Positions 9,534 through 64,000 are shown, counted from the first letter of the stretch. The stretch: DNA of 64,000 nucleotides from Fidelibacterota bacterium (GCA_022573815.1 JACZTG010000001.1:64882-128881), one strand, 5' to 3'. A program made the numbers and translations. The notes: generated by a model from the letters alone, not told the origin.

Positions 9534-9545
9534 TAGAGGAGTGAA

Positions 9546-10190: not shown

Positions 10191-10210
10191 CAGGTTTTTG
10201 CATACGAAAG

Positions 10211-12642: not shown

Positions 12643-12651
12643 CGGAGGAAC

Positions 12652-13359: not shown

Positions 13360-13374
13360 TATTAGAGATATAAG

Positions 13375-42673: not shown

Positions 42674-43459
42674 TTGACTTTTAATCCTCAATATATTCTT
42701 GATACGTGGATTTTTTTGGTTGGTGCCACGGTTGGAAGCTTCCTCAATGTGGTAATTAGCAGACTGCCTCGAGGTGAATCTATCGTGAAACCGGCTTCTC
42801 ATTGTCCAAAATGCGATACGCCTGTGAAGCCTTACGATAACATTCCGATTTTGAGCTGGCTGCTTCTCAGGGCAAAATGCAGGAGCTGCAAAAAACCTAT
42901 TTCCGTACGATATCCTTTAGTTGAGTTAGGAGTGGCGCTGTTGTTTTTAGCGATGTATCAATTTTTCGGATTATCATGGGAATTTATGAGCTTTATATCT
43001 TTAGGACCGTTATTGCTTGCGGTGAGTCTTATTGATATAGATACACAGCTAATTCCCGATTCAATTTTGATTACAGGCGCCATTATAGGAGTGTTGCTCG
43101 CTCTGTTCGGTGACGCCATCTCAATAGAAAATTCGCTAATCGGGGGAGCTGTAATGTCCGGAACGTTCTTTTTGATTGCTCTATTGGGGGAAAAGATTTT
43201 TAAGAAAGAATCTATGGGATTCGGGGATGTAAAACTTTCTGCGATGATAGGCATATTTATAGGCTGGAAATTAGCTTTGTTAGCGATATTTCTATCGACG
43301 ATTTTCGGTTCTATTATCGGCATGGGAGGAATAATATTAGGTCGAATGAAATTCGGGAAACCGTTTGCGTTCGGCCCTTTTATTGCCCTTGGAGCATTTG
43401 TCAGCGGCTTGTGGGGAGAAGATATACTTCGGCTTTATATTGAATGGGCATTTGGATGA
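42674..43459 (+). CDS. pilD: Prepilin peptidase (A24 family, PilD/GspO)
   Basis: N-terminal Zn-binding tetracysteine CPKCDT...CRSC. Polytopic with catalytic Asp regions. TTG start immediately after the preceding stop. Confidence 0.8.
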   Translation: MTFNPQYILDTWIFLVGATVGSFLNVVISRLPRGESIVKPASHCPKCDTPVKPYDNIPILSWLLLRAKCRSCKKPISVRYPLVELGVALLFLAMYQFFGLSWEFMSFISLGPLLLAVSLIDIDTQLIPDSILITGAIIGVLLALFGDAISIENSLIGGAVMSGTFFLIALLGEKIFKKESMGFGDVKLSAMIGIFIGWKLALLAIFLSTIFGSIIGMGGIILGRMKFGKPFAFGPFIALGAFVSGLWGEDILRLYIEWAFG

Positions 43460-46674: not shown

Positions 46675-47885
46675 TGCCGGAATTCACTTATAAAGCTAAG
46701 AATATGAAAGGCGAAATTTTCACCGGAACTTTGAACGTTGGTTCTAAACAGGAAGTAAATGAATACCTTGATGTTCAGGAATATTTTCCATTAGAGATCA
46801 AAGAGAAAAAAGAAATCAATCAAGGTCCGTCATTTATGGACAGATTTCAAAAAATCAAAACTGAAGAGATAGCCAACTTTACCCGCCAGGTTGCTACGCT
46901 CATCGGTGCAGGCGTACCGATAGTGTCCGCATTGGACGCGTTGTATGACCAGGAGGAAAATGAACGGTTTAAAGGAATTTTAAAGACGGTAATAACCGAT
47001 GTAAGCGCCGGATCCAGCTATTCTGACGCTCTTATGAAACATCGCACAACTTTTTCGAATTTATACGTGAATATGGTACGGGCAGGAGAGAGCGCCGGTG
47101 TGCTTGAAGATGTGCTAAAACGATTGAGTGAGTTTATGGAACATGACGAATCTGTCAGAAAAAGCATCAAAAGTGCTATGCGATATCCGATAATTGTAAT
47201 GATTGCTTTAACGATGGCATTCTTTTTTGCTGTTACGTTTATTATTCCGAAATTTACGGTTATGTTTGAGCGATCAGGGGTAGAACTTCCATTCATCACG
47301 CGGATGCTGCTGGCTCTAAATACTATTATAACAGATTATTGGTATCTGGCGGCTATCGGAATAGGACTGACTATTTTTCTTGTTAAACGGGTTCTCGGCA
47401 CTCAGCAAGGAAGATTGGTTTGGGATGGATTTAAGCTCAAACTCCCGATTTTCGGAACGCTGTTCCTGAAAAATGCGATTTCGCGATTTACGCATATGCT
47501 TGAAACGCTGAATTCCAGTGGTATTCATATAATAGAAGCTCTGCAAATATGCTCGGAGACTACAGGGAATGCAGCTATAAGTCGTGAGATAGATCAAACA
47601 AGATCCGAAGTGGAAATCGGAGCAAGCTTGGCTGATGCACTTGATAAAGGAACCATTTTCCCTCCAATGACTATAAGGATGATACGGACAGGACAGGATG
47701 CGGGATCACTCGACGAAATGCTGCGAAGTATTTTCGTTCAATACGATGAAGAGGTGGATTATCTCACAAAAAGGCTTTCAGCTCTTGTTGAGCCATTGAT
47801 GACAGTGGTAATCGGAGTATTTATCCTGATTATAGCTCTGGGAATATTCTTACCAATGTGGGGAATGTACGAGGCAGTGAAATAA
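46674..47885 (+). CDS. Type II secretion system F-family platform protein (PilC/GspF)
   Basis: Two T2SSF repeats, 3 TM helices, 403 aa. Confidence 0.85.
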   Translation: MPEFTYKAKNMKGEIFTGTLNVGSKQEVNEYLDVQEYFPLEIKEKKEINQGPSFMDRFQKIKTEEIANFTRQVATLIGAGVPIVSALDALYDQEENERFKGILKTVITDVSAGSSYSDALMKHRTTFSNLYVNMVRAGESAGVLEDVLKRLSEFMEHDESVRKSIKSAMRYPIIVMIALTMAFFFAVTFIIPKFTVMFERSGVELPFITRMLLALNTIITDYWYLAAIGIGLTIFLVKRVLGTQQGRLVWDGFKLKLPIFGTLFLKNAISRFTHMLETLNSSGIHIIEALQICSETTGNAAISREIDQTRSEVEIGASLADALDKGTIFPPMTIRMIRTGQDAGSLDEMLRSIFVQYDEEVDYLTKRLSALVEPLMTVVIGVFILIIALGIFLPMWGMYEAVK

Positions 47886-49219
47886 AGAGCGCTCAACCAA
47901 ATTCATTCGCGCGAAACTTTAGTTGCGCCCCAATTTTGGCGTTTTTTTTCATTCTTCTTTCTTGTGACGGGAGAGATTTAACGGATGGCGGAAACGACAA
48001 CGGAATTACCACACAATTTAATTTAAGCGTAATGTCCGACGAGCTGAAGGTAACGTTAAATTGGGATAAAATCAGTGATGATAATCTTGATTTATATAAC
48101 ATTTATCGTTCAGAGAATGAAGGCGAATTTATTTTATACGATACAGTAAATATTGCTTTAAATACATTCAGCGACACAGAAGTGACTGCTGATTTTATTT
48201 ATGAATATAAGATAACTGCGATATTTGACGGCATCAGAGAATCCGACCCGTCAGAAATTGTGAGAATTATTCCCGGATTCACTAACCTTTGGGTATTGGA
48301 CTTTCAGGGCGATGTTTTAAGTGAATTGACTCATGATGCAGCTCATTTTACCGGAAATTTTTTTGATAACTTGACGCTGCCGGTGGCGCTCGACATCGAT
48401 GAAAGAAACGGTTATATTTACTACATTGATGGATCGAATAAGACTCTTAATTTGGTTTTCGAAGGATCTGAACCATTACTTTTGACAAATGCTGAGGGGA
48501 ACGCTCAAATGTTTTCGGATCCGACTGATGTGGATTTTGATATGCTCAGAGATGAAATTTGGTTAACAAACGGCAATTCGGGCGCTCTGTTTCATTTCGC
48601 AATGATAAACCAATCCCAATGGGTCCTTTCCGATTCCCTAAATACAGGTGGAGACGCAATATACGGTCAGCTGGATATCGCAAGAGGGGATTATTGGGTA
48701 GTGAACAGTAAGGGAAAATCAATTGAAATATTTCAGAATAGAAATGGTGAATTTGTACAGATTTCAGCCACAGGCTTTGCGAGCGGAAACCTTACCCTTG
48801 CATTGGACGCGGATAGAGCAACGGCGTATGTCATAGACAGGTCAAACGGTGATATATTTTGGGTAAAGGCATCGGGGGAAACAACTTTAATAACTAATAT
48901 TAAAAATGCATTTTTAGCTGCGGTTGTGCCTTCTACAGGCGATGTGTGGCTTATTGCTGATGACGATGAGAATGGCATCGCAGATTTAGTAAAACTATCA
49001 ATCGTAGGAAGCCGTATACTGGAAATAATGAATCTATATTCTCAGCCCTCGTGGATAGGAGTAAATCCAATTAATATGAACGTTACAGTGTTGAACACTG
49101 CTTCAGGGGAAGTTAAAATTGATGTGTTATCCAATAGCACAGGGGAAAATATAAGTTCATTCAAATCTTTGAATTTTCCCGCAATTGCCCGAATTGTAGA
49201 TAAAAGAAATAGGATTTAA
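47858..49219 (+). CDS. Lipoprotein with an FN3-like domain and a predicted beta-propeller-like C-terminal region
   Basis: Lipobox FFFILLSCDG. The FN3-like segment runs LKVTLNWDKI...YEYKITA. It overlaps the pilC 3' end by 28 nt, so the true start may be an internal alternative start codon. Confidence 0.45.
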   Translation: MGNVRGSEIKSAQPNSFARNFSCAPILAFFFILLSCDGRDLTDGGNDNGITTQFNLSVMSDELKVTLNWDKISDDNLDLYNIYRSENEGEFILYDTVNIALNTFSDTEVTADFIYEYKITAIFDGIRESDPSEIVRIIPGFTNLWVLDFQGDVLSELTHDAAHFTGNFFDNLTLPVALDIDERNGYIYYIDGSNKTLNLVFEGSEPLLLTNAEGNAQMFSDPTDVDFDMLRDEIWLTNGNSGALFHFAMINQSQWVLSDSLNTGGDAIYGQLDIARGDYWVVNSKGKSIEIFQNRNGEFVQISATGFASGNLTLALDADRATAYVIDRSNGDIFWVKASGETTLITNIKNAFLAAVVPSTGDVWLIADDDENGIADLVKLSIVGSRILEIMNLYSQPSWIGVNPINMNVTVLNTASGEVKIDVLSNSTGENISSFKSLNFPAIARIVDKRNRI

Positions 49220-49234: not shown

Positions 49235-51256
49235 TTGAAAGCATTTTCTAAAAACTTCATTCTTTTACTTCTGCCTTTGCTGGTTTTTTTTGTTGTCTAC
49301 ATCGGAGATACGGTATTTAAGATTAATACCGGTGTAGTAGAAGTATTAGCGTGGCTAAGAGAATTATTACTTCTTGGAGCTATCGCAGGACTTGTGCCTC
49401 TTCTCTCTTCGCTGAAGATTCTTAATCCCGGCAAGACAACAGCAAAATTCAGAGTATTACTTTTCGTTGTTATAGCATTTTTTGTAGTTTCCGTCGTTCA
49501 CAAATTTGTTTTAGTCCCAATATTCGGTACTCTCAATGGATATGTATTGATATCCATAATCTACTCTTTTTTAAGCATTATAGGGTTGATCCAAATTCGG
49601 GACCTCATCTACTTTAAAAGAAAAAAAAATACCGGCAAAGTATTTGCCGCGCTAATCATATCAATTTCTATGGTTTCTATATATGGCGGATTAAGCTCAA
49701 AAGATTTTCAGCAAATATTGGGCATAGTGATGATTCCAATCGGATTCGCAATATTCAATTCGTTTAGGGTTTCATGGATCGCTTATTTGTCTAAGAGTCA
49801 AAAATACCTGGTTTTACTCTTCTGTATGATTTTAGTTGCCGGATCATATTTTTTAAGGGATTTGGTTATAGCATCAGCATTATTTGAATATAGCTACAGT
49901 GTAGAAATATTTGTACATCTTGCCACAACTTCAATCTCTATATATACGTTTTTTGGAATGGTTGGCTTACTGCTTCACCTTCCGACAGCAACGTTATTCG
50001 ACCGGAAAATAAGAGATATTGAGTCTCTTCAAAGTCTCAGCCGGGCGGTGAGTTCGGTTTTAGATGTAAGTAAACTCACGGAGATGATTTCAGAATTCAC
50101 TGCTGAATATTCCAACTCACAATACTCGTGGTTGGTATTAAGAGAGCCTGATGATGACGAATTTTACCTTATGTCAAGTCATGGACTCACAGAAGAGCAA
50201 CAAAATAATATGAGTTTTAAAATTGACGAGGGAACAAGCGGCCTGATTTTTAAAAGCGGCGAACCTTTGATTTCTCAAGATGTGGCAAGAGAAGAAAGCA
50301 CCAAGCACTTAAAATTCTGGAATGCAGGAATAAAATCACTTATAGGATATCCCCTTATATCCGAAGCGGGAGTTATAGGTATTCTCTACGCCGGAATGAA
50401 TGAAGAATACGGATATGATAATGACGACATAGACTTAATAGGCGCATTCTCAAATCATATAGTAATCGCATTGGAAAATGCTAAATTGGTTGAAGGGTCC
50501 ATCGAAAAAGAAAGACTCGAACATGAGCTTAGACTTGCCCACGAAGTACAGCTGAATCTTCTTCCGAAGGGTGTTCCGGATTTACCCGATGATTTCGACA
50601 TCGCTGCTGCCAGTATGCCGGCTAATGAAGTTGGCGGCGATTATTTTGATTTCATTGAGATTGATGAAAATCGTATCGGACTTGTTATCGGCGATGTTTC
50701 AGGCAAGGGAACATCAGCTGCATTCTATATGGCCGAAATTAAAGGGATGATTCAAGCCTACAGCAGAATTTATGATTCACCACGTAAAATATTATGCGAT
50801 GTAAATCGCGCACTATACGGTAATCTGGACAGCCGCTCCTTTATATCGCTTACCTACGCCATTGTGGACAGTAAAAAACATAAAATGAAGTACTCAAGAG
50901 CCGGACATATGCCTATACTGCGCTATCTCGAAAAAGAGAACGAATGGTCCGAATTGGAGCCAAAAGGGATAGGATTAGGTATGGATAAAGGCGATATCTT
51001 CGATAAAGTTATCGAAGAAGCGGAAATAAAGCTTAAAAGTGACGAGCTTTATTTCTTTTACACTGACGGCGCTTCGGACGCGATGAATCATAATCAGGAG
51101 GAATTTGGAGAAGAAAAATTGAGAATATCGTTAACAAAACATTATCACTTGAGCTGCGAAGAGATAAAAGCCAACCTGATTAATGATATTTGGAAACATA
51201 TCGGCAAACAAGATGTGCATGACGATATAACGATGATTATTATGAAAATTAAGTAA
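49235..51256 (+). CDS. Membrane-anchored GAF-domain PP2C/SpoIIE-family Ser/Thr phosphatase (RsbU-like)
   Basis: About 7 N-terminal TM helices, a GAF domain, and a C-terminal PPM domain with HEVQLNLLP and EVGGDYFDF. Typical of RsbU/SpoIIE phosphatases. Confidence 0.8.
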   Translation: MKAFSKNFILLLLPLLVFFVVYIGDTVFKINTGVVEVLAWLRELLLLGAIAGLVPLLSSLKILNPGKTTAKFRVLLFVVIAFFVVSVVHKFVLVPIFGTLNGYVLISIIYSFLSIIGLIQIRDLIYFKRKKNTGKVFAALIISISMVSIYGGLSSKDFQQILGIVMIPIGFAIFNSFRVSWIAYLSKSQKYLVLLFCMILVAGSYFLRDLVIASALFEYSYSVEIFVHLATTSISIYTFFGMVGLLLHLPTATLFDRKIRDIESLQSLSRAVSSVLDVSKLTEMISEFTAEYSNSQYSWLVLREPDDDEFYLMSSHGLTEEQQNNMSFKIDEGTSGLIFKSGEPLISQDVAREESTKHLKFWNAGIKSLIGYPLISEAGVIGILYAGMNEEYGYDNDDIDLIGAFSNHIVIALENAKLVEGSIEKERLEHELRLAHEVQLNLLPKGVPDLPDDFDIAAASMPANEVGGDYFDFIEIDENRIGLVIGDVSGKGTSAAFYMAEIKGMIQAYSRIYDSPRKILCDVNRALYGNLDSRSFISLTYAIVDSKKHKMKYSRAGHMPILRYLEKENEWSELEPKGIGLGMDKGDIFDKVIEEAEIKLKSDELYFFYTDGASDAMNHNQEEFGEEKLRISLTKHYHLSCEEIKANLINDIWKHIGKQDVHDDITMIIMKIK

Positions 51257-51295
51257 CAATAAGCGTTTCAGAACGTAAATAGCAGGGAGAGATAA

Positions 51296-51652
51296 ATGCA
51301 AACAGACATAATATTGAAGAGAGAAGACATTAATGGAGTCTCGGTAATTCACGTCGGAGGATACCTTGATGCTCATACAGCAACAAAATTCGAATCGTTA
51401 ATACTCGAGTTGACCAATGCAGAAAGATATAAACTCATCCTGAACTTCAAGGAACTTGATTACATTTCAAGCGCCGGATTGGGAGTTATTATGGGAAATA
51501 TCGAAGAGATACGGAATCATGATGGAGATATCAAGCTGTCTGATATGGGCGAGAAAATTTACAGAGTATTTGATTTAGTGGGATTCCCGAGTTTGTATGA
51601 CATATTCGATACTCAGAAAGAGGCTGAAACTGCTTTCGAAAGCAAAAGCTAA
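51296..51652 (+). CDS. STAS-domain anti-sigma-factor antagonist (RsbV/SpoIIAA-like)
   Basis: 118 aa. The conserved phosphorylatable Ser context is LDYISSAGLGVI. Confidence 0.8.
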   Translation: MQTDIILKREDINGVSVIHVGGYLDAHTATKFESLILELTNAERYKLILNFKELDYISSAGLGVIMGNIEEIRNHDGDIKLSDMGEKIYRVFDLVGFPSLYDIFDTQKEAETAFESKS

Positions 51653-51666
51653 ACGGGGAGAGAATA

Positions 51667-52104
51667 GTGTCCAACAAAGATTTTATACTGAAAATTCCCA
51701 CTCGCAGCACAAACCTGAAAATAATTCGTGATTTTATAATGGATGTTTCCGACAAAGCGGGATTTGAGAACGAAGCGTGCTGTGATATTGCGCTTGCGGT
51801 TGATGAAGGATGCACAAATGTTATAAAACACGCATATAGGGGTGGCGATGGCAAGGATATTATAATAAACGTCAAGTATGATAAAGAAAAAATAACTATT
51901 ATCATATCTGATACGGGTAAAGGATTTGATTCAGAGGTTTATGAAACCCTTGATTTAGAGGAATACCTTATAAAATTGGAAAAGGGCGGATTAGGAATTC
52001 ACATTATGAAAAATACAATGGACGAGATTGATTTTAGGAAGGAAAAGGATAACATTAATTCCGTTCATATGATAAAATTTTTACCGCAGGAGAGTGCAGA
52101 TTAA
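51667..52104 (+). CDS. Anti-sigma regulatory factor Ser/Thr protein kinase (RsbW/SpoIIAB-like GHKL ATPase)
   Basis: HATPase_c N-box DEGCTNVIKHAY, G1 DTGKGF, G2 GGLGI. 145 aa. GTG start. Confidence 0.75.
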   Translation: MSNKDFILKIPTRSTNLKIIRDFIMDVSDKAGFENEACCDIALAVDEGCTNVIKHAYRGGDGKDIIINVKYDKEKITIIISDTGKGFDSEVYETLDLEEYLIKLEKGGLGIHIMKNTMDEIDFRKEKDNINSVHMIKFLPQESAD

Positions 52105-52165
52105 AAGATGAATTCCAATTCCTTTGAATAAGTAATGATACAGTCGTATTTTACTTCTGCCATTT

Positions 52166-53893
52166 ATGCAATATAATAACACAAACAGAAAATATCTCGA
52201 AGAGAGAGAGCAGGATCTGCATGATCTTTTTGAAGTAAGCAAACGACTGGATAGCTTAACTAATTTCGATTCCATTATCGGACAGATGCTTCTCTCATTA
52301 ATGGGGAGATTGATGATACAGAAATCTGTATTTATCATCATGAATGAAGATAAAGATGAACTCAGTCTCTGCAAGGCAAAAGGACTTAATCAATTTGAAG
52401 AAGGGACGGTAATAAAATACAATAAATTACCGGAAGAATTTTGCAAGTTGGAAGCGCTCAAGAAAGATGAGCCCTTGAGGGATTATTTAGAAAGCGAAGA
52501 CCTTGAAGTGTTGTTTCCTATGATGAAAGCAGGCAGATTGATGGGTCTCCTTGCATTCGGAAAAAGGTTCAAAAACGACGAATATGAGAAAGAAGAAATA
52601 AATTATGTTTCTTCGCTACTGTCTTTAACAGCTTCATCAATAGAAAACGCACTATCCATAGATAAGATAAACAGTATAAACCGGGGACTCGACAGAAAAA
52701 ATCAGGAACTCCAGACTCTTTTTGAACTGGGTAAAGAATTAAACTCCACGTTAGATCAGGAGACTATAGTAAGACAATTCGGCTATGCTCTGATGGGGCA
52801 AATGATGGTAGGCAGGTTTCTAATCTATTTAATCAGCGACGACTCTCTAAAGATATTTCACAATAAAGGTTTCAGCGGCGAGCATGTTGAGAGTATTCAT
52901 CCGTGCTTAAAAGAGCTGGAAGATTTAAACGAAATATTGCTTGTGCAGAAAAAGAAAGATAAACTAAACGGCATACTTGCCAAGGCTCAAATAGCTGCTG
53001 CTATTCCTCTCTCGATCCAGGGTGAAAATAAAGGGGTGCTTTGTATAGAGGAAAAAAGAGGGACAGAACAATTTTCTGATGACGATTTACAGCTTCTGCA
53101 TACCATGGGCGGACAGGTGATAATTTCTTTAGAAAATGCGAGACTCTTTAAGGAATCGCTTGAAAGACAACGGTTGCAGGAAGAACTGAACATTGCCAGG
53201 GAAATACAACAAGGTCTGCTTGCATCTGATTTCAATGTCTCCGGCGGGTGGAAGATATTCGGGAAGAATGTTCCCAGCCTGGAAGTTGGCGGAGATTACT
53301 TTGATGTGATTAAATTGGATAACGGTAAAATAGCGCTAGCTATCGCTGATGTATCCGGAAAGGGAGCCGGCGCCTCACTGCTTATGTCGAATCTGCAGGC
53401 AAGCTTGCGCGCCTTAGTCAATGTTGATACAAATCTTGGTTCAATGGTGGCAAGGATAAATAATATCCTGTATCAAAATACATCAGCGGATAAATATATA
53501 ACCTTTTTCATCGGGATTCTTGACCCTGACAAAAGAACATTCACGTTTTGCAATGCGGGCCATAACCCACCTCTAATATTCTCCCAAAACGGTAATGTGA
53601 CCGAGCTCGAAGAGGGAGGTTTAATAATCGGGGTGATGGCTGGAGCAATTTATAAGGTTGGAAATGTCGTGTTAGATGATGGGGACACTATCGTAATGTA
53701 CACAGACGGAATTACGGAAGCAGAAAACGAAAAAGGTGAAGAATTCGGCGAGGAAGGCTTAAAGAACCATGTAAAAAGAAACCTAAAGTCTTCCCCTGAG
53801 GAGCTGATAAACTCTATAATAGAGGAAGTAGAAAGCCACGCTGTTGATTTGTCGGCCCAGGATGATGTGACACTACTTATTTTTAGCGGTTAA
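52166..53893 (+). CDS. Cytoplasmic GAF-domain PP2C/SpoIIE-family phosphatase (second RsbU/RsbP-like)
   Basis: Two GAF-like regions followed by a PPM domain with REIQQGLL and EVGGDYFD. No TM segments. Confidence 0.8.
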   Translation: MQYNNTNRKYLEEREQDLHDLFEVSKRLDSLTNFDSIIGQMLLSLMGRLMIQKSVFIIMNEDKDELSLCKAKGLNQFEEGTVIKYNKLPEEFCKLEALKKDEPLRDYLESEDLEVLFPMMKAGRLMGLLAFGKRFKNDEYEKEEINYVSSLLSLTASSIENALSIDKINSINRGLDRKNQELQTLFELGKELNSTLDQETIVRQFGYALMGQMMVGRFLIYLISDDSLKIFHNKGFSGEHVESIHPCLKELEDLNEILLVQKKKDKLNGILAKAQIAAAIPLSIQGENKGVLCIEEKRGTEQFSDDDLQLLHTMGGQVIISLENARLFKESLERQRLQEELNIAREIQQGLLASDFNVSGGWKIFGKNVPSLEVGGDYFDVIKLDNGKIALAIADVSGKGAGASLLMSNLQASLRALVNVDTNLGSMVARINNILYQNTSADKYITFFIGILDPDKRTFTFCNAGHNPPLIFSQNGNVTELEEGGLIIGVMAGAIYKVGNVVLDDGDTIVMYTDGITEAENEKGEEFGEEGLKNHVKRNLKSSPEELINSIIEEVESHAVDLSAQDDVTLLIFSG

Positions 53894-54163: not shown

Positions 54164-55282
54164 ATGACAAGAACTGTAATAGCAGCCCTTTTTCTGCTGG
54201 CTCTTACATTTAATACCACAACATTAAAAGCTCAAGGCGAAGCTGGCGCGCCTTTTTTATTGATAGCTCCGGGTGCGCGCGCAAGCGGGATGGGCGAAGC
54301 GAATGTTGCATTAGCCGATGACGCGGTTGGCGGATTTTATAATCCTGCCGGTATTGCATGGGCGGAAGGCAAAAATCTAACATTTATGCGCGCGAAGTGG
54401 CTTCCAAATTTAGTCGATGACATCAGTTATAATTTCTTAGGTTATAGCCAATATGTAGAGGGTCTTGGTTCAATCGGAGGTCATATAATATACCTTGATC
54501 TCGGAGAACAGGTGAGAACCGGAGAAAGTTCACCTGATGCATTAGGTACCTTTCAATCTTTTATGCTTGCGGTAGCAGGCACTTACGCCGCGGATCTCGG
54601 TGAAAATTCTGCGGTAGGAATTAGCGTTAAATTCGTACATCAGGACCTGGCGCCATTTGGAGCCGGACAGGAAAAAGGAAGCGGCTCATCCTCTTCCTTC
54701 GCATTTGATGTAGGTCTGTTAGCTCGAGATAAAATTGTCGGCGGACTTGATTTGGGTATTGCTATTGCTAATATAGGTCCGGACATCGCATTTATTGATG
54801 CTAATCAGGCTGATCCGATGCCGATGAATTTAAAAATGGGTCTCTCATATATGCTCTTCGATGGAGAATTTAATTCCCTGCGAATAGTGTATGATATGAA
54901 CAAGCTTCTCGTGGCTTCATATCCTGATAGAGATTTAAACGGCAATGACATAATTGACATTGGAACTGATGAAGAAGCCCATAAAGATCCATTTTACAAA
55001 GCATTTGTTACTTCGTGGACTGATGATTCTGCAAATATTGAATGGCAGAAGATCATTCATAATTTTGGCGTCGAATATTGGTATTCAGGGGTGGTAGCGC
55101 TTAGAGCCGGCGTATTCAGAGATTATTTACTTAAAGATACAGATAATAGTGTCGCACTTTTTAAAACTGTTGGTGTGGGTCTCAGGTATAATACCTTAGG
55201 TTTCGATTTCGGCTACGTAGATGGTCCCGAAGGACATCCGATTACCAACACTATGCGTTTAAGTTTTAATCTGGCTTTTTAG
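54164..55282 (+). CDS. PorV/PorQ-family outer-membrane beta-barrel protein (type IX secretion shuttle-like)
   Basis: Signal peptide, then the family-typical PGARASGMGEANVALADDAVGGFYNPAGIAW. About 370 aa. Ends in an aromatic residue. AAGGAG RBS. Confidence 0.6.
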   Translation: MTRTVIAALFLLALTFNTTTLKAQGEAGAPFLLIAPGARASGMGEANVALADDAVGGFYNPAGIAWAEGKNLTFMRAKWLPNLVDDISYNFLGYSQYVEGLGSIGGHIIYLDLGEQVRTGESSPDALGTFQSFMLAVAGTYAADLGENSAVGISVKFVHQDLAPFGAGQEKGSGSSSSFAFDVGLLARDKIVGGLDLGIAIANIGPDIAFIDANQADPMPMNLKMGLSYMLFDGEFNSLRIVYDMNKLLVASYPDRDLNGNDIIDIGTDEEAHKDPFYKAFVTSWTDDSANIEWQKIIHNFGVEYWYSGVVALRAGVFRDYLLKDTDNSVALFKTVGVGLRYNTLGFDFGYVDGPEGHPITNTMRLSFNLAF

Positions 55283-55346
55283 AACACTTCAGCTAATAAT
55301 TTTACACAGGTGCATGGCAGTTGCCGGTCCTCAAAAAGCGAATTCA

Positions 55347-58300
55347 ATGTTGAATCTGTTTCCCGATAGAATAAAAACATTCGTTTTCGTTATAATCTTA
55401 TTTTTTGTATCAGGAATTGAAGCGGCGGAAAACGGATACAGAGTTAATTTTCATAATTATTCTTCAGGTTTAAAGAGTTCTGTTATAAGTCAAAGTGTCT
55501 CAATAGCGGCTATCAGGGTTCAGTTTGTGGAAGATGACGAAGAAGGTACGACGGGAAACGGATTGTTCGATCTTTCATCACCATCGGCAGGCGATGATTT
55601 TATATTCGATCCGCCGCCGCATAACCGGAGATATTTTCAGGCGCATTTGGAATCGCTTAACAATTATTTTAATTCGGTAGGTCAATCCCGATGGGGAATT
55701 GGTGGGATCAATTCAACCGTATTCCCGCTTCTAACGGATAGCGTGTATGATCTTCAAAATCCGATGCGGTTTTATAGCCCGAAATCAGATGAAGAAACCA
55801 ATGATAAACGGTTGGCGCAGCTTTTCTACGAATCTGTAATTTTAGCTGCGGATGATGCGGGAAATTACTCGGGAACTGACTTAGTTATTGTTTTTCATGC
55901 TGGAGTTGGAAAGGATTTTACATTTCAACTCGACCTCACACCGTTCGATATTCCCTCGGCTTTGCTCGACAGAGATTTTCTTCAGCTGAATTTGGCTTCT
56001 TCTGAATTTTCCCAATTAGAAAGTTTGGGAGTTACCACCGGATTGATACTTCCGGAAACACAAAGTCAGGATGGTTTCAATATTGCGCTAAATGGTACTA
56101 TTACTTTGCTGTTCGGCAGGTTTTTAGGATTACCCTCTTTATGGAACACGGATACTGGCGACCCTGGAATCGGAAAATGGGGATTGATGGATCAAGGTTC
56201 AAATAATATGGATGGAGCTGTCCCAGCTCGCCCGAGCGCATTCAGCAGAGTATTTATGGGATGGGAATTGGATATACCAGCATATCCGAGTGAAGGAAGA
56301 GAAATATTCACTGCCGCTGACGAGTTTGGCATTAAATATTATTCTATTAAAATCAATTCAGATGAATATTTTTTGATTGAAAACAGAAGCAGAGCTACAA
56401 CAAATAAAACGGGATTCGAAGAGCTTATAGTCGGAAGAGATACCGCTTATGTAAAGTTTGATTCCTTAGGAAGCGGCGTAATAGTTAGTGTATCAAATTA
56501 TGATGCGGGAATTCCCGGCTCGGGACTGCTTATCTGGCATATAAATGAATCTGTCGTGAAAGAGTTTTACTCCACAAACCGGATTAATACAGATAAAGAA
56601 AACAGGGGAGTAGATCTTGAAGAGGGGGACGGTTCGCAGGATATAGGAGAAGAATTTGGATTCTTGCAGCCCGGGGGCGGTTCTGAAAACGGCACGCCTT
56701 GGGATCCTTTTTACGCTAAGAATCCCGCCTGGTATTTCCAAAATCCTGATTGGGAAGCGGATGCTGATTCCACAGTGGCATTTACGCCTGAGACCAGCCC
56801 AAACAGCAATAGTAACGCAGGTGGCAAAACAGGAATTAGTATAACAAATATTTCCAAAGCGGGTTTAAGAATGACCTTTGATGTTGCTTCAAGCTTTCTT
56901 GCTGTGGGGTTCCCATTATATCTGGGCGCCGGAGCGGGAAGGAGTTTTCCTGCAGTTGCCGACTTAGATGGAGACGGAAATATAGAGATATTAGTGGCAA
57001 CGTCGGATGGAACTATACACGGCTGGACACTGATACTCGATAGACTTCCATTAGTTTACTTGGGAGGTGGTGATACAGAAAATATAGTATCCACATTCGG
57101 AAATGTAACTACAAGCCATAGAATCGGAATATTCGCAGATTCGGTAGGTTCTATTAGTAATATCGCAATAAGCGACATAGACGGAGACGATACACTTGAA
57201 GTTGTGGTAGTTACTAAAAATGGCAAAGTGATAATGTATGAGCCGGAAGAAGGGGCGGTTATTGATAATCGCGCCGACAGCGCCTGGTCAATCTATCTTG
57301 GCGAAGAAGTGTTAGCAACTCCAATTGTATCCAACGGAAGAGTTTATGTAGGCAGCTTAAGCGGCACAATTTCGGAGATTAACAGCAGCGGGAATCTGAT
57401 TAATTCGACTGCATCCGCTATTGAAATTCTAAGTATGACATTACCGGATGGTGAAGCTGTCAAAGGTTCAAACGACAATATTATTTCCGGTAATTTTTTA
57501 CAGAACCGTAAATCGCTTGGTTCTGAACCCGAAGATTTAATTGTGACTATTTCCGCGAAAGGAATTGTGAGGGTTTTTATCGGTACAAACACGGATCTGG
57601 TCAACGCTGATTATGAATATGATATGGGCGACAGTGTACTTTCCTCTCCCGCAATGGCAGATATAGATAAAGATGGTGAACTTGAGATAATAATAACAGG
57701 GAATAATAAACTTTGGGCGTTTAACGGGAATTTGACACTTGTGGAAAATTTCCCTGTCACAATCGGTATTCCGGAACCGGTCGGTAAGATATTATCGTCG
57801 CCTGTTATAGGAGATGTTGACGGCGACGGTTCACCGGAAATAATTTTCGGAGCTCCTGACGGAAAGATTTACGGTTATCATTCGGATGGAACTGTGGCGG
57901 AAGGTTTTCCTCTTTCAACGGGAGCAAGCGTGAGCTCAACGCCTGTTATAGTTGATGCGATTCCGTCAGGCGCAATGGAAATCGTGGCAACGAGTGACGA
58001 TGGTTGGCTGTATATGTGGTCTGTGCCCGGTAACGGAACAGCTGGAAATACTCCGGCTTATCTTCCGTGGAGCGCATTTGCCGGCTCGAACGAAAGAACA
58101 AATTTTGCTCCCGCTTCACCGAGTTCACCTCCTGTAGGAATAAATGAACTGCTTGCTCAGGATAAAGTGTTCGCTTATCCGAATCCCGTGGAAGGGAGTG
58201 AAGTGCGGATACGGTATTTTGTTAATCAATCCGGCAGTGTTGATATAATGATATTTGATATGGCAGGTGAGTTTGTAACAAAATTGCTTAACTCCAACAT

Positions 58301-58436
58301 AGTTCAAAATGAATATAACGAAACGGTTTGGAATGTAAAAAACGTGTCAAGCGGAGTCTATTTAGCCAGGGTAACCGCTCATGGATTATCCGGCGGGCTG
58401 TCGTCTAAAGTTATTAAAGTGGCAGTTGTAAAATGA
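55347..58436 (+). CDS. Large secreted FG-GAP/VCBS-repeat protein with a T9SS C-terminal sorting domain
   Basis: Signal peptide from the internal M at 55347. Repeated DxDGDG calcium-binding FG-GAP motifs include DLDGDGNIEILVATSDG, DIDGDDTLEVVVVTKNG, DIDKDGELEIIITGNN and DVDGDGSPEIIFGAPDG. The C-terminal about 80 aa, VFAYPNPVEG...SGVYLARV...KV, matches the Por secretion CTD. Confidence 0.65.
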   Translation: MLNLFPDRIKTFVFVIILFFVSGIEAAENGYRVNFHNYSSGLKSSVISQSVSIAAIRVQFVEDDEEGTTGNGLFDLSSPSAGDDFIFDPPPHNRRYFQAHLESLNNYFNSVGQSRWGIGGINSTVFPLLTDSVYDLQNPMRFYSPKSDEETNDKRLAQLFYESVILAADDAGNYSGTDLVIVFHAGVGKDFTFQLDLTPFDIPSALLDRDFLQLNLASSEFSQLESLGVTTGLILPETQSQDGFNIALNGTITLLFGRFLGLPSLWNTDTGDPGIGKWGLMDQGSNNMDGAVPARPSAFSRVFMGWELDIPAYPSEGREIFTAADEFGIKYYSIKINSDEYFLIENRSRATTNKTGFEELIVGRDTAYVKFDSLGSGVIVSVSNYDAGIPGSGLLIWHINESVVKEFYSTNRINTDKENRGVDLEEGDGSQDIGEEFGFLQPGGGSENGTPWDPFYAKNPAWYFQNPDWEADADSTVAFTPETSPNSNSNAGGKTGISITNISKAGLRMTFDVASSFLAVGFPLYLGAGAGRSFPAVADLDGDGNIEILVATSDGTIHGWTLILDRLPLVYLGGGDTENIVSTFGNVTTSHRIGIFADSVGSISNIAISDIDGDDTLEVVVVTKNGKVIMYEPEEGAVIDNRADSAWSIYLGEEVLATPIVSNGRVYVGSLSGTISEINSSGNLINSTASAIEILSMTLPDGEAVKGSNDNIISGNFLQNRKSLGSEPEDLIVTISAKGIVRVFIGTNTDLVNADYEYDMGDSVLSSPAMADIDKDGELEIIITGNNKLWAFNGNLTLVENFPVTIGIPEPVGKILSSPVIGDVDGDGSPEIIFGAPDGKIYGYHSDGTVAEGFPLSTGASVSSTPVIVDAIPSGAMEIVATSDDGWLYMWSVPGNGTAGNTPAYLPWSAFAGSNERTNFAPASPSSPPVGINELLAQDKVFAYPNPVEGSEVRIRYFVNQSGSVDIMIFDMAGEFVTKLLNSNIVQNEYNETVWNVKNVSSGVYLARVTAHGLSGGLSSKVIKVAVVK

Positions 58437-61399
58437 CGCTATTCCGATTTTTCAGTTTAATTCTGGCTTACTTATTATCCGCAAATGTTGTTGTTAATGC
58501 CCAATTTCAACGTAATAACCATACAGAATTAAATTGGAAAACGATCGAGACCGAACATTTTAGCGTAACTTATCATCAAGGGCTGGAAACTTCTGCTGGG
58601 CGTGTTGCAAAGATAGCAGAGGAAATCTATCATCCCGTTACGGCTCTGTATAATTATGAGCCTCAGAACCCGATTCATTTTATAATTCAGGACACTGACG
58701 ATATATCCAACGGCGCCGCATATTTTTATGATAATAAAATCGTTATCTGGGCGTTACCTATGGACTACGACCTCCGCGGAACGCATAACTGGCTTCGGGA
58801 TGTGGTTACTCACGAATTTACTCATATAGTGTCAATGCAAGCAGCAATGCGATTCAACAGACATATTCCGGCTCTCTATTTTCAGTGGTTTAGGTATGAG
58901 AATGAACGACGTGATGATGTCGTCAGAGGATTTCCAAATGGGATAGTTTCCTATCCTTACGCGGGACTTACGGTGCCTTTGTGGTTCGCCGAAGGAGCGG
59001 CTCAGTATAACAGCGGTACATTAAAGTATGACCATTGGGATTCTCATAGGGATATGTTATTGAGGGAGCGGTCACTCAACGGGTCTCTGTTAAACTTGGA
59101 TGATATGGCGGTTTTCGGGAAAGTCGGCATTGGAAACGAGAGTGTTTATAATCAGGGATATTCATTTATAACCTATATTGCTGACCGGTTCGGAGAACAA
59201 TCAATAAGTAAGATAGCTAAAGCATTTTCCTCAACGCTTCCGATTTCCATCTCCGGCGCTATAAAGAAGGCAACAGGGATTGAGGGAGAGATAGTTTTTG
59301 AAGATTGGAAAAGAAAAATTGGCATTGATTACACTGGCAACACCAATATCATTCAGCAGAACCTTGCAGAGGGAACGGTAATAAGCAAAGGTGGAGCCGC
59401 GAATTTGTTTCCTACATGGTCGCAAGACGGCAACAAAATCGCTTATCTGTCGAGCAAGAATCATATATCTTTTGGACGTACTGACTTAATGCTGTTCAAC
59501 GCAGAGAATGGAAATAGTGAGAAAATCGCTTCTTCAGTCGGTACTTCACCTTCATGGTCACCCGACGGAAACGAGCTGGTTTACGGCAGGGTAAGTAAGC
59601 CGGATAAACACGGATCGACATATTTTGATCTGTACCGCTACGATATTAAGAAAAAGAAAGAGAAAAGACTCACTCACGGAAGCAGAGGAAGGTATCCGGC
59701 ATTCTCTCCTGATGGTAAGGAGATTGTGTTTGTCACTACTAATGACGGCGCAAGCAGTTTGATGGTTTACGATATCAAGACCGAAACGATAAGAGAATTA
59801 TTGAGTTTTGAGGAGATAAGACAAGCCTATAAATTGGATTGGTCGCCTGACGGAAATTCAATACTCTTTGAAACTTCTACAGAAAACGGAAGAGATATTG
59901 CGCTCGTTAATGCCGATGGCAGCGAATTCAGGATGCTTCTGAATAGCCCGGCGGATGAACGTCACCCTGTCTTTTCGCCTGATGGCGAAAAAATATATTA
60001 TTCCTCCGATAAAACGGGCATATTCAATATTTATTCATATGATTTGACCAATAGTGAGACTAAACAATGGACTAATGTTACAGGCGGCGCTTTTATGCCG
60101 TCGGTTTCTTCAAAAGGAGAACTGAGCTATTCGCGGTTTGAGGGGACAGAATATAAACTTTCGCTATTGAAGCTGGGAAACGAGGTAAAACCTGAACATT
60201 CGGTTTATAATAACTATCTGGAGACTTTGCCAACAGTTGATTATGACCAAAATTCTCTCCCGGAATATGAATCAAAAGAGTATGTGGCCACCACCATGAC
60301 TACGTTTTTTATGCCTCGATTGATGATTGATTACGGCACCGTAAAGGTGGGTGGATATGTTTTCTCCAACGAGCTGCTCAATAAAATAAGTGTCATCGGA
60401 GGAGCAACAATCAACAAGGATTACGATTACGATTTATACCTTCGATTCGATTTCAATCGTTTATCGCCTAATATTTTTATTGAAGCGTACGGGATTTCAC
60501 AAAACGTAGTAGATTCGTTGGTGTTACCCGGTCAAACTACTCCACTTGATATAAAGTTCAATCTAAAGGAAGTGTCTCCGGGGATGACTTTTTACAGGGG
60601 AGTGAAAGATCAGTTCACTTTCAGACTAACGTATAGTATTTATTCTGCCTCTCAATCAGGATTTCTTATAGATGATTTCGGTGGTTTAGTTAAAACTTCG
60701 TTCGGTTATGATTACTTCATAGGTAGGTCGGCATCGGTGGAATGGGGAAGAGACAATAGAGAGAGAACTGCAAAGAGTTATATTGCGAGAGATAACGGTA
60801 TGCGGTGGCGTTTATCATACGCATATAAGCGGGATAAATTCATAGTTGATTTTGCTCGAAATGAAGATTTCGGAACAATTGAGGAGGTCTTTATCCCATT
60901 TAATTATCAGCAATTGGATTTGAATATTGATAAATATTTCAGCCTTCCCGGCAATAGCGCACTTGCCTTGAATATAGAAGGTGGTTATATTTCTAATAAC
61001 GTAAACGACTTTCTCCACTACTTTGGAGGAGGCCTCCTTGGGATGAAAGGATATTCGTATTACAGCTATGGTGGCGAGCGAAAAATACTCGGCACGGTAA
61101 CGTTAAATGCTCCTATATCAAATGGGATTAACAAGGCTTTATTAAACCTTTACATTAGGGATTTATATGGCGGAATTTTCTTCCAATACGGAGATGCATG
61201 GATAGGAACAGCGAGGATAAATGAATTCAAACGGACGGTCGGTTATTCCATCAGAGTTGGCGCTTATTCGTTCTATGCTTTTCCAACGGCATTCGAATTT
61301 CAGGCTGCGTATGGACTCGATAAATTCAGTGATGAGCAAGGAATCGTCCGGGGAAATGAATGGCGATATTATTTTACGCTTTTGTTTGATTTTCTCTAA
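58433..61399 (+). CDS. Outer-membrane protein with an N-terminal HExxH metallopeptidase-like region, TolB-like PD40 beta-propeller repeats and a C-terminal beta-barrel
   Basis: Signal peptide. HExxH as VVTHEFTHIV. Repeated SPDG motifs (WSPDGNELVYG, FSPDGKEIVF, WSPDGNSILF, FSPDGEKIYYSSDKTG). A C-terminal about 400 aa with alternating beta-strands ends in FDFL. ATGA coupling to the upstream gene. Confidence 0.55.
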   Translation: MTLFRFFSLILAYLLSANVVVNAQFQRNNHTELNWKTIETEHFSVTYHQGLETSAGRVAKIAEEIYHPVTALYNYEPQNPIHFIIQDTDDISNGAAYFYDNKIVIWALPMDYDLRGTHNWLRDVVTHEFTHIVSMQAAMRFNRHIPALYFQWFRYENERRDDVVRGFPNGIVSYPYAGLTVPLWFAEGAAQYNSGTLKYDHWDSHRDMLLRERSLNGSLLNLDDMAVFGKVGIGNESVYNQGYSFITYIADRFGEQSISKIAKAFSSTLPISISGAIKKATGIEGEIVFEDWKRKIGIDYTGNTNIIQQNLAEGTVISKGGAANLFPTWSQDGNKIAYLSSKNHISFGRTDLMLFNAENGNSEKIASSVGTSPSWSPDGNELVYGRVSKPDKHGSTYFDLYRYDIKKKKEKRLTHGSRGRYPAFSPDGKEIVFVTTNDGASSLMVYDIKTETIRELLSFEEIRQAYKLDWSPDGNSILFETSTENGRDIALVNADGSEFRMLLNSPADERHPVFSPDGEKIYYSSDKTGIFNIYSYDLTNSETKQWTNVTGGAFMPSVSSKGELSYSRFEGTEYKLSLLKLGNEVKPEHSVYNNYLETLPTVDYDQNSLPEYESKEYVATTMTTFFMPRLMIDYGTVKVGGYVFSNELLNKISVIGGATINKDYDYDLYLRFDFNRLSPNIFIEAYGISQNVVDSLVLPGQTTPLDIKFNLKEVSPGMTFYRGVKDQFTFRLTYSIYSASQSGFLIDDFGGLVKTSFGYDYFIGRSASVEWGRDNRERTAKSYIARDNGMRWRLSYAYKRDKFIVDFARNEDFGTIEEVFIPFNYQQLDLNIDKYFSLPGNSALALNIEGGYISNNVNDFLHYFGGGLLGMKGYSYYSYGGERKILGTVTLNAPISNGINKALLNLYIRDLYGGIFFQYGDAWIGTARINEFKRTVGYSIRVGAYSFYAFPTAFEFQAAYGLDKFSDEQGIVRGNEWRYYFTLLFDFL

Positions 61400-61417: not shown

Positions 61418-62188
61418 ATGAAATTTAATTATTTAATATTAGCCATCTGTCTTTTACTCGCAGCGTCAGATTCTTTCGCTTCCGATAAAAACAGGGGGAG
61501 AAAAATAATTCTTGATTCGGGAGAAACGGTCGAATTTGCTTATTTCAGCGAAGAATCACCTGCGCAGGACAGCTCCGGAAATCGAGTGGTTGTGAAACGT
61601 CCCGGTATATCTTTCCTGAGTTCGGCAATTATACCCGGAGCGGGTCAATACTATAACGGCTCAAAAAAACGAGCCGCAGCATTTTTAGCGGTTGAAGTGG
61701 GTCTATGGGTAGGCTATGCTGCGTTTCAAGGTAAGGGTCGCGATAAGGAGGATGAATATCAGGCTCTTGCAGACCAATATTGGGATTTTACCAGGTATAA
61801 TCCGACAGAAGATGAACAATCACAGGGCCATACTATTCCGCTTGATGCCAATGATAATGTGATAAAAACTAATGAATATTATGAAAATATCGGGAAGTAC
61901 GATAAGTTTAACAGAGGATGGGAAGGGGCGATTATAGGTTCCAATTCAACGACAACGGAAGAAAGGGAGGTGTATCTGAATCTTAGAAAAGACTCCAACG
62001 ACTTCTTTGGATTGGCAACCACAGCAGCTTCTTTAGCGATACTCAATCATATATTGTCCGTGGGTGACGCTATATTTACGGCTAAAAAGCTAAATGACGA
62101 AGCGTCGCTGAAAATATCTGTCAAACCGTTACCAACCGGAAAAGGAAACGAATTTGTGAACGCACTTTCGATCGGTATCGCATGGTAA
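61418..62188 (+). CDS. Hypothetical exported protein (DUF5683-like hydrophobic hairpin)
   Basis: Signal peptide. FLSSAIIPGAGQYYNGSKKRAAAFLAVEVGLWVGYAAF resembles a DUF5683 membrane-embedded segment. Confidence 0.4.
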   Translation: MKFNYLILAICLLLAASDSFASDKNRGRKIILDSGETVEFAYFSEESPAQDSSGNRVVVKRPGISFLSSAIIPGAGQYYNGSKKRAAAFLAVEVGLWVGYAAFQGKGRDKEDEYQALADQYWDFTRYNPTEDEQSQGHTIPLDANDNVIKTNEYYENIGKYDKFNRGWEGAIIGSNSTTTEEREVYLNLRKDSNDFFGLATTAASLAILNHILSVGDAIFTAKKLNDEASLKISVKPLPTGKGNEFVNALSIGIAW

Positions 62189-62985
62189 ATGTTAAAATGA
62201 AATTTTTAATTATTATATATATATCGGCTATTGCGTTATTCCTGACAGGGTGTGGTTCAAAGAAGAACAACGAACTGGAGCCTGTGGATGTTCGCTTCGA
62301 AAGAGGAATGGAGTATTTTCAAAAGAAAAAATATTCCAAATCCATAATCGAATTTAAATTTGTTACCTTTAACGCACCGGCAAGTGAAATTGGCGACGAT
62401 GCACAATTCTATCTGGCTGAGGCGCATTTCTATTCGAAAGAGTATATTCTCGCAATCTCTGAATACGAGCGGTTGGTTCGAATACATCCTGAAAGCCCGC
62501 TTGTGGATGAAAGCCAGTATAAGAGAGCGCTTTGTTTCGATATACTTTCCCCAAAATCTTATCACGATCAGGAAAATACGATCAAAGCCCTTGACGCATA
62601 TCAGGAATATATTGAGGAATGGCCTCAAAGCGAAAATAAAGAAAAAGCAGAAGGCCGCTTGGATAAATTGAGGTTCAAGCTGGCAAAAAAAGTATATGAT
62701 GCCGGAATGCAATATCGAAAATTGGATGAGTGTAAATCATCCATCATATACCTTCGACAGGTATTGGATAAGTATTATGATAGTGAGTTTGCGCCAGGGG
62801 CGCGCTGGAACATCGCAAGGTGTGAAATAAAACTTGAAAACTGGAGTGATGCGCTGGCAATGCTTATCGAAATTATCAATCGTAATGACGATTCTGAATA
62901 TCTGAAAAAAGCACAAGAAGTATTGCCTGAGGTAAGAGAAAATGCGGAAAAATCTGAAGAACAAGCCCTTTTAGAAGATAACTGA
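62182..62985 (+). CDS. bamD: Outer-membrane protein assembly factor BamD-like TPR lipoprotein
   Basis: Lipobox LTGCGS. BamD/YfiO-like TPR arrangement. 267 aa. Confidence 0.65.
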   Translation: MVNVKMKFLIIIYISAIALFLTGCGSKKNNELEPVDVRFERGMEYFQKKKYSKSIIEFKFVTFNAPASEIGDDAQFYLAEAHFYSKEYILAISEYERLVRIHPESPLVDESQYKRALCFDILSPKSYHDQENTIKALDAYQEYIEEWPQSENKEKAEGRLDKLRFKLAKKVYDAGMQYRKLDECKSSIIYLRQVLDKYYDSEFAPGARWNIARCEIKLENWSDALAMLIEIINRNDDSEYLKKAQEVLPEVRENAEKSEEQALLEDN

Positions 62986-63613: not shown

Positions 63614-63679
63614 TATTCCTTTAATTATCCGATAATATAACTGGAATAAGAATCTCAGCTATTATAAATTTCCCACATT

Positions 63680-63753
63680 GCCCTCGTAGCTCAGCCGGAT
63701 AGAGCGACGGTTTCCTAAACCGTAGGCCGCAGGTTCGAGTCCTGCCGTGGGCA
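63680..63753 (+). tRNA. tRNA-Arg (anticodon CCT)
   Basis: Manual fold: acceptor GCCCTCG/CGTGGGC with one T:T mispair at 5:68. D-arm GCTC-AGCCGGATA-GAGC. Anticodon arm ACGGT-TTCCTAA-ACCGT. T-arm GCAGG-TTCGAGT-CCTGC. Discriminator A. No encoded CCA. Confidence 0.8.
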
Positions 63754-63827
63754 CATAATTCAATCTGAAATACTGATAAATCAGCCGATAAATATCAGTG
63801 TTCATTGAGAGGTATAGTGCTGTGCGA

Positions 63828-64000
63828 ATGAAGATTTTATCAGCCACCTGTATTGTTATAGCTACGTTCCTGATAGGTTGCGAAGACCCGGACGTTATTC
63901 CGCCGACGATAAGTATCACTAATCCGGCGGACGGCGTCACACTGACAAGAGCGGTGACCATAAAAGTAGATGCCTCGGATGATGAAGCTGTGGATATAGT
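63828..64000 (+). CDS. Lipoprotein, N-terminal fragment (3' end lies outside the window), probable Ig-like domain
   Basis: ATG at 63828. MKILSATCIVIATFLIGCEDPD (lipobox LIGC) followed by a PADGVTLT...VDASDDEAVD BIg-like start. Confidence 0.4.
   Translation, partial: MKILSATCIVIATFLIGCEDPDVIPPTISITNPADGVTLTRAVTIKVDASDDEAVDI

Follow-up and report, generated by a model that had tools for sequence, protein, structure and literature searches.

The Omp85 superfamily has a central place in the biology of the outer membrane, and several of its subfamilies, the 'WD40-like' one included, have been without an assigned function since being catalogued in 2014. Its 'WD40-like' subfamily was defined by Heinz and Lithgow (2014; Front Microbiol 5:370, PMC4104836) with the profile PF07676 with or without PF01103 (Table S2 of that paper), and each of the about 95 members compiled in Table S3 combines a BamA/TamA barrel match and a TolB match with a 'best aminopeptidase hit', the latter being to F3, aminopeptidase A or collagenase. 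Absence of POTRA domains is characteristic of the subfamily, to which 'divergent WD40 and peptidase domains' were ascribed (PMC11358297) and which has been called not well characterised (PMC11116518). Neither catalytic-site conservation nor a gene context related to type IX secretion systems (T9SS) is mentioned in the defining paper (PMC4104836), and a functional study of the subfamily was not found in the searchable literature. Here, a gene encoding such a protein is analysed, located at positions 58433..61399 (plus strand) of a 64,000-nt stretch of DNA from a Fidelibacterota bacterium (GCA_022573815.1, JACZTG010000001.1:64882-128881; in the following 'the window', by which the full stretch is meant). 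Its 988-aa product, to which all residue numbers refer, is a member of the WD40-like/peptidase Omp85 subfamily with an architecture already catalogued in 2014 and hence not new. With a probability of roughly 0.55, it is an outer-membrane-anchored and probably periplasm-facing zinc endopeptidase working together with the T9SS.

Among Omp85 proteins bearing an enzyme, the patatin-like PlpD ('type Vd') employs the barrel as scaffold for an N-terminal hydrolase, as does the protein studied here; PlpD, however, possesses one POTRA domain and a lipase and has no T9SS context, whereas a metallopeptidase and a propeller precede the barrel in the Fidelibacterota protein. The enzyme domain of PlpD is exclusively periplasmic (PMC11116518). 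BamA and TamA share with the 988-aa protein the 16-strand barrel, a long loop 6 with the motif (V/I/L/M)(R/K)G(Y/F) and a C-terminal aromatic end resembling a beta-signal, but carry POTRA domains where the latter has an enzyme domain. To our knowledge, the described T9SS includes neither an Omp85-family nor a gluzincin component. An earlier note on the same stretch, made from the sequence alone, had regarded the combination of domains as not assignable to a characterised family, which does not hold, as architecture and folds are those of the WD40-like Omp85 subfamily (PMC4104836; PMC11358297): a PD40/TolB-like propeller stands before an Omp85 barrel and an aminopeptidase/collagenase-like domain occupies the extreme N-terminus. 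The abstract and outline of a study on the machinery for beta-barrel assembly (BAM) of Bacteroidota (PMC12611786) contain nothing relevant to this family.

Relatives are encoded in at least 569 species genomes, and full-length ones at 36-46% identity come from KSB1, Calditrichota, Ignavibacteriota, Marinimicrobia, Kryptonia, Latescibacteria and metagenome-assembled genomes of Bacteroidota. The closest named relative among the matches listed belongs to Candidatus Marinimicrobia (68% identity), while the products of the cassette genes (see below) of two Caldithrix abyssi assemblies (L029, L071) are 37-39% identical over the full length. Three of the proteins in the published Table S3 are presumably also from this species, judging from the accession prefix. 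The peptidase domain alone retrieves 3237 clusters at 50% identity with a limit of E ≤ 1e-3, of which 251 remain if E ≤ 1e-30 is demanded; as nearly every complete match is the N-terminal part of a protein of about 1000-1200 aa, the domain appears to be specific to this type of architecture.

Domain architecture and putative catalytic site

From the open reading frame (ORF), its scans against Pfam and NCBIfam and two AlphaFold2 models, one for the peptidase domain and one for the barrel region, both built with an alignment of 62 full-length homologs, the following features are assigned:

58433..61399, plus strand: target gene, ORF with ATG start, 988 aa, with full-length homologs at 36-86% identity
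58433..58501, plus strand: signal peptide, residues 1-23, with predicted cleavage between VNA and QF, read directly from the sequence
58502..59392, plus strand: gluzincin (clan MA(E)) metallopeptidase domain, residues ~24-320
58811..58825, plus strand: HEFTH zinc-binding/catalytic motif, residues 127-131, in a predicted helix (120-138)
58982..58996, plus strand: WFAEG motif, residues 184-188, in a predicted helix (183-192), with E187 as candidate third zinc ligand
59393..60202, plus strand: TolB-like PD40 beta-propeller, residues ~321-590 (Pfam PD40, 4e-26; family profile against TolB in PDB, E = 8e-21)
60203..60298, plus strand: low-confidence linker before barrel strand 1, residues ~591-622, with short helices only (predicted local distance difference test score, pLDDT, of 47-75 in the AlphaFold2 model)
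60299..61396, plus strand: 16-stranded Omp85-type beta-barrel, residues ~623-988
61028..61054, plus strand: loop-6 motif GGLLGMKGY, residues 866-874, between strands 11 and 12

The ORF on the plus strand coincides exactly with the secreted 988-aa protein proposed in the earlier note, and its N-terminus, MTLFRFFSLILAYLLSANVVVNA followed after the cleavage site by QF, has the pattern of a type I signal peptide. Throughout the 988 residues, neither a lipobox nor any cysteine is present, and the T9SS C-terminal sorting domain (CTD; TIGR04183/PF18962) gave no match, the barrel forming the end of the protein. The protein is a Sec-exported outer-membrane protein with the Omp85 barrel as C-terminal membrane anchor, in which peptidase domain and TolB-like propeller stand in place of POTRA domains. 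The ending FDFL named in the earlier note is indeed there, but it does not provide the terminal phenylalanine ascribed to it, the last residue being leucine; in homologs, the F-x-F/Y motif is often trailed by one or two extra residues or a basic tail. Conservation is highest in the peptidase domain (about 50% identity), compared to about 33% in the barrel.

The peptidase domain (residues 23-320) was modeled at a pLDDT of 85, and the model contains a thermolysin-like catalytic fold. The HEFTH sequence, part of the VVTHEFTHIV stretch in which a metallopeptidase-like HExxH had been spotted before, is found on the predicted active-site helix of this gluzincin fold, and the candidate third-ligand glutamate on the next helix. 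In the 63-sequence alignment, whose columns are the basis of all residue counts given here, H127, E128, E187 and Y239 occur without exception and H131 occurs in 62 of the sequences, and W184, A186, E187 and G188 of the WFAEG motif are likewise invariant (63/63). Moreover, HExxH is kept in 119 of 120 homologs at identities down to 38%, while by our own estimate the motif would turn up by chance in roughly 3% of proteins as large as this one. As far as can be judged from the alignment, the catalytic residues are under strict purifying selection, and the strictly conserved zinc site would mean that proteolysis is a selected activity of the protein beyond scaffolding.

Structural matches of the model are the gluzincin peptidases of families M30 (lugdulysin/hyicolysin), M1 and M9, albeit at an identity of only 9-15%; these enzymes share the predicted catalytic fold, in which the helix after that of HExxH carries a downstream glutamate. 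Hence, the domain looks like a catalytically competent gluzincin. Its WFAEG sequence resembles the WLNEGFA motif of M1 peptidases, which, however, have a spacing of 18 residues (HExxH-X18-E), in contrast to the 55 residues between HExxH and E187 in the present protein, where a beta-hairpin (148-155, 168-176) is inserted between the two helices. In addition, the GxMEN exopeptidase motif of the M1 family is absent, the equivalent strand reading NGAAYFYDN. An M1 aminopeptidase is ruled out by this absence together with the 55-residue ligand spacing, and because the exopeptidase motif is missing, the predicted activity is probably that of an endopeptidase.

The propeller comprises five clear repeats of the (W/F)SPDG type starting at residues 327, 373, 422, 468 and 512, to which a degenerate sixth around 555 is added, one more clear repeat than the minimum of four expected by the earlier note, and probably has six blades. 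Canonical TolB was considered as well and rejected, as TIGR02800 yields 149 bits, far under its curated cut-off of 343 bits, and aligns only to the propeller part; a full-length TolB with its N-terminal alpha/beta domain is not found.

For the C-terminal region, in which a barrel had been suspected from alternating-polarity strands, the model of residues 576-988 indeed shows 16 beta strands at a pLDDT of 88 following a low-confidence linker of about 45 residues, and BamA proteins are its closest structural matches. All three structural assignments of the earlier note thus stand up, and the outcome that it named as refuting, a HExxH buried in a fold other than that of a peptidase and a C-terminus other than a barrel, is not what the models show. 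In the family, loop 6 follows the pattern [LMI][KR]GY, a variant of the Omp85 motif (V/I)RG(F/Y), with MKGY at 871-874 in the Fidelibacterota protein; G866, G870 and Y874 are found in 63/63 and G873 in 62/63 sequences, while position 872 is lysine in 43 and arginine in 19 of them. The second Omp85 motif is degenerate, reading YG[ND]AW and not [F/Y]xDxG. At the sequence level, the Pfam scan returned nothing for the last ~400 residues, and the similarity of TamA to the family profile is marginal (E = 0.007). A POTRA domain was neither matched by Pfam in the protein nor is a beta-alpha-alpha-beta-beta unit present in residues 576-622 of the model. Due to the missing POTRA domains and scores far under the curated cut-offs, an assignment as BamA orthologue is ruled out.

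A conserved cassette with T9SS genes

In the window, the gene is embedded in the following row of genes, all transcribed in the same direction:

54164..55282, plus strand: PorV, the T9SS outer-membrane shuttle (NCBIfam PorV/PorQ, 248 bits; F. johnsoniae PorV in PDB, E = 4e-26 over the full length)
55314..58436, plus strand: M6-like pseudoprotease, 1040 aa, bearing FG-GAP propeller repeats and, at the C-terminus, a type-A T9SS sorting tail (Por_Secre_tail, 2.8e-9)
61418..62188, plus strand: DUF5683-like small envelope protein (Pfam DUF5683, 1.1e-5, just below the gathering threshold)
62182..62985, plus strand: BamD, outer-membrane assembly lipoprotein (TIGR03302, 129 bits, above the cut-off of 81.4)

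The stop codon of the M6-like gene and the start codon of the gene studied here overlap by 4 nt (ATGA), and the first 7 nt of bamD are shared with the DUF5683-like gene. The small DUF5683-like protein begins with a signal peptide, has hydrophobic segments surrounding a PGAGQ motif and carries an aromatic residue at the C-terminus.

Conservation of this arrangement was evaluated at 130 non-redundant loci, scoring neighbors with phmmer and counting as denominator the loci with enough flanking sequence. An M6-like CTD gene lies directly upstream of the homolog at 105 of 113 loci, PorV upstream at 81 of 88 and, further upstream, a gene for a PorU-like C25 peptidase at 40 of 81, while DUF5683, the last conserved gene, follows downstream at 87 of 97 loci. 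Consequently, the connection with adjacent T9SS cargo suggested in the earlier note is borne out at the level of gene order. The gene is the third of a conserved cassette made up of porV, M6-like pseudoprotease, the peptidase-Omp85 gene and DUF5683, which ranges over Marinimicrobia, KSB1, Calditrichota, Ignavibacteriota, Kryptonia and Latescibacteria. Unsupervised clustering of the neighboring ORFs did not reveal any other widely conserved neighbor. In the KSB1 locus L005, the homolog is followed by an unannotated 256-aa gene and then by a 222-aa gene with a faint DUF5683 match.

The M6-like neighbor scores 517 bits against the NCBIfam model 'T9SS-dependent M6-like inactivated metalloprotease', below the cut-off of 600 bits. 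At the aligned site, HExxH is gone in 67 of 67 sequences (xxGxxLGLPDLF), with HQxxH kept in three of KSB1 type, so that beside the predicted live protease there is, by its sequence, a universally dead one. A partner subunit seems the better description of it than a substrate enzyme in need of maturation. A significant sequence match in PDB to the solved PorZ or PorU structures was not obtained, and only the CTD of the protein resembles PorZ (NCBIfam). PorV together with a large CTD-bearing propeller protein in one operon is reminiscent of the attachment pairs PorV-PorU and PorQ-PorZ, in which a barrel is combined with a tethered CTD protein.

The cassette is not the classic porU-porV neighborhood, which in Cytophaga hutchinsonii continues with small genes after porV; three genes following porU-porV fit there on a 2.2-kb fragment (PMC8564354). 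When the names PorV2, PorU2 and type IX sorting, taken from the NCBIfam matches, were used for a literature search, only false matches were retrieved. Neither the operon linkage to the T9SS nor the coupling of a predicted live gluzincin to an M6-like partner that is dead was found in the searchable literature.

Linkage to sprA, the gene of the T9SS translocon, is observed at 12 loci in total, with the gene either about 7 kb downstream on the same strand (6 of 63 loci) or divergently adjacent upstream (6 of 104). The latter six (L065, L084, L087-L090) belong to a paralog subclade without the PorV cassette, the members of which are about 60% identical to each other and 34-46% identical to the cassette copies; in L065, the divergent pair occupies 1217-7801 (minus strand) and 7971-11087 (plus strand), leaving an intergenic gap of about 170 nt. 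Between cassette and downstream sprA, the Ignavibacteriota-type locus L014 holds lptF and lptG in opposite orientation (12095-14559, minus strand), and one lipopolysaccharide-export permease gene is confirmed at the corresponding place in L083 (12092-13501, minus strand). In these two loci, cassette, permease genes and sprA make up an envelope-biogenesis neighborhood.

Downstream bamD, as in the window, was encountered at just 8 of 85 loci, all from Marinimicrobia. Because it is beside the cassette only in this lineage, bamD is possibly a lineage-specific neighbor and not part of the module. The gene is, nonetheless, one of the observations that would fit a function centered on the barrel, according to which the latter is a BamA/TamA-like assembly factor for T9SS barrels, such as the 36-strand SprA and PorV, with propeller and protease replacing the functions of POTRA domains, BamB and BepA, that is, substrate docking and removal of stalled intermediates. 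Such a role would be in line with the retained [LMI][KR]GY motif of loop 6 with its invariant glycine and tyrosine, BamA as closest structural match, the family members next to sprA and the 'BamA-BamB fusion' proposal (Heinz and Lithgow, 2014; PMC4104836). We consider it unlikely, however, as POTRA domains, which in known systems bind the substrates and BamD, are missing, the second Omp85 motif is degenerate, bamD adjacency is rare, and not the barrel but the peptidase domain is the most conserved part; moreover, PlpD demonstrates that the Omp85 scaffold can be a plain anchor.

Predicted role at the outer membrane

In the favored reading, the outer-membrane-anchored zinc endopeptidase would have both protease and propeller exposed to the periplasm, since Omp85 proteins of determined topology, including PlpD, place their N-terminal domains there. 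The propeller would admit only unfolded chains or peptides to the active site, comparable to the propellers of tricorn, DPP-IV and prolyl oligopeptidases, and at the outer membrane the enzyme would have PorV and the pseudoprotease as partners in its action. Its most likely job would be clearing or trimming of T9SS-related polypeptides on the periplasmic side, either stalled and unexported cargo or as a maturation step. BepA, an M48 protease at BAM and LptD, may serve as a functional analogy only, being a periplasmic zinc protease that clears stalled clients.

Several points weigh against this reading. Throughout the family, the activity, metal content, topology and partners assigned are deduced ones. 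No peptidase family model of Pfam or NCBIfam scores above threshold for the protein, the NCBIfam matches to HExxH families are weak, and Pfam Peptidase_MA_2 (PF13485) gives 28.4 bits, under the gathering score of 32.4; this threshold is passed by the paralogs of L065 (37.7 bits) and L084 (35.6 bits). Likewise, Pfam Omp85 (PF01103) does not match the protein at E ≤ 0.01; some homologs have weak precomputed matches to it. A protease residing in the periplasm could not reach mature cargo exposed at the surface, which, by analogy with PlpD, would also be a topological problem for the processing of adjacent cargo envisaged in the earlier note. Furthermore, the modeled disordered linker of about 45 residues before strand 1 is compatible with threading through the barrel. 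A third type of paralog (L043/L045, ~7887-11210, 1107 aa) has no T9SS neighbors but is surrounded by genes for TatC, a thioredoxin-like protein, an ArsA ATPase, orotidine monophosphate (OMP) decarboxylase and a rhomboid protease. Finally, going by our reading of the UniProt accessions in the list of Heinz and Lithgow, the wider family presumably extends to Vibrio, Geobacter and myxobacteria, which are thought to lack the T9SS, so that its basic function would not be T9SS-specific. A T9SS role, if real, would be a specialization of certain clades.

The last two points would also suit a general envelope peptidase degrading peptides in the manner of tricorn or DPP-IV for nutrition or housekeeping, with the synteny simply reflecting shared envelope-gene neighborhoods. 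The family is multi-copy per genome, members seem to occur in T9SS-less bacteria (from our reading of the accessions listed in PMC4104836), paralogs such as those of L043/L045 have unrelated neighbors, and Caldithrix and relatives are peptide fermenters (PMC5317091). But the order of the genes, which overlap or are tightly spaced, persists in no fewer than five phylum-level lineages although the proteins are only 34-46% identical, and a second paralog clade is independently located beside sprA. As it would be difficult to account for such deep conservation if the functions were not coupled, incidental synteny is disfavored and a general peptidase of this kind appears quite improbable.

Alternatively, the N-terminal domains could be threaded through or around the barrel to give a surface protease that cooperates with the PorV-tethered M6-like pseudoprotease, for example, in cargo processing or attachment alongside PorU. 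This possibility follows the style first proposed for type Vd secretion and comes nearest to the processing protease of the earlier note. PorV, the PorU-like protein and the CTD-bearing M6-like protein, the partners in the operon, all act at the surface, the flexible linker of about 45 residues before strand 1 might permit passage, and the dead partner could present substrates to the live protease. Yet PlpD, for which alone among Omp85 families export of the N-terminal enzyme had been proposed, keeps the domain periplasmic, a folded peptidase-propeller unit of 570 residues is ill suited as passenger of a 16-strand barrel, propellers of the TolB type usually reside in the periplasm, and many of these operons already include a gene for a PorU-like sortase. 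Surface exposure is, accordingly, given very little credence here, and the periplasm-facing endopeptidase remains the preferred assignment.

Remaining window and meaning for the family

In the remainder of the window, the following genes were noted, some of them immediately preceding the cassette:

17709-22204, plus strand: aerotolerance-type operon BatA/BatB/TPR/BatD (domains VWA, VWA, TPR and BatD)
35027-35950, plus strand: XerC/XerD-type tyrosine recombinase (Phage_integrase and SAM-like N-terminal domain), among housekeeping genes
42674-43459, plus strand: prepilin peptidase of a set resembling those for type IV pili or type II secretion
43495-45249, plus strand: PilB-type ATPase of the same set
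45274-46674, plus strand: sigma-54 response regulator interrupting this set
46674-47885, plus strand: PilC-type platform protein of the same set
47858-49219, plus strand: 453-aa ORF without Pfam match, following the PilC-type gene
49235-51256 and 52166-53893, plus strand: two GAF-SpoIIE (PP2C) phosphatases
51667-52104, plus strand: HATPase_c_2 anti-sigma-type kinase flanked by both phosphatases
63680-63754, plus strand: tRNA-Arg (CCT), at the window's right end

The Bat operon is typical of Bacteroidota relatives. Phosphatases and kinase form a set of partner-switching style just upstream of porV (49235-53893, plus strand), and in locus L001 a SpoIIE-GAF gene is located upstream of porV as well. 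A 99-aa ORF at 63662-63961 (minus strand) overlaps the tRNA gene and is probably spurious. ORFs of at least 150 aa are nearly all on the plus strand. Of 32 segments of 2 kb, 30 have a positive GC skew, the exception at 26-30 kb being the site of minus-strand genes; strand bias and positive skew fit one replichore with a strong gene-strand bias. GC content is uniform across the window (37-44%), and signs of mobile elements other than the XerC/XerD-type recombinase were not seen in it. A mobile or foreign origin of the peptidase-Omp85 gene is not supported, base composition being flat and the neighbors being housekeeping genes.

Extending the favored reading, it is tentatively proposed that in bacteria of the Fibrobacteres-Chlorobi-Bacteroidetes group outside the Bacteroidia the gluzincin-Omp85 protein, the M6-like pseudoprotease and the DUF5683 protein are unrecognised T9SS subunits around PorV for proteolytic quality control or maturation of cargo, a possibility that we hold to be less probable than not. 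If true, Marinimicrobia, KSB1, Calditrichota, Ignavibacteriota, Kryptonia and other lineages would employ a proteolytic step absent from the T9SS models established for Porphyromonas and Flavobacterium. In that case, an entire Omp85 subfamily would moreover obtain its first function, and a secretion system other than type V would for the first time be seen to have recruited an Omp85 scaffold. That the gene shares a conserved operon with porU, porV, the T9SS-tailed pseudoprotease and sometimes sprA suggests extra T9SS parts outside the well-studied Bacteroidia and makes the hypothesis genetically testable. As uncultured marine and sediment phyla are rich in members of the family, its role may matter for surface display and secretion of enzymes in these bacteria.

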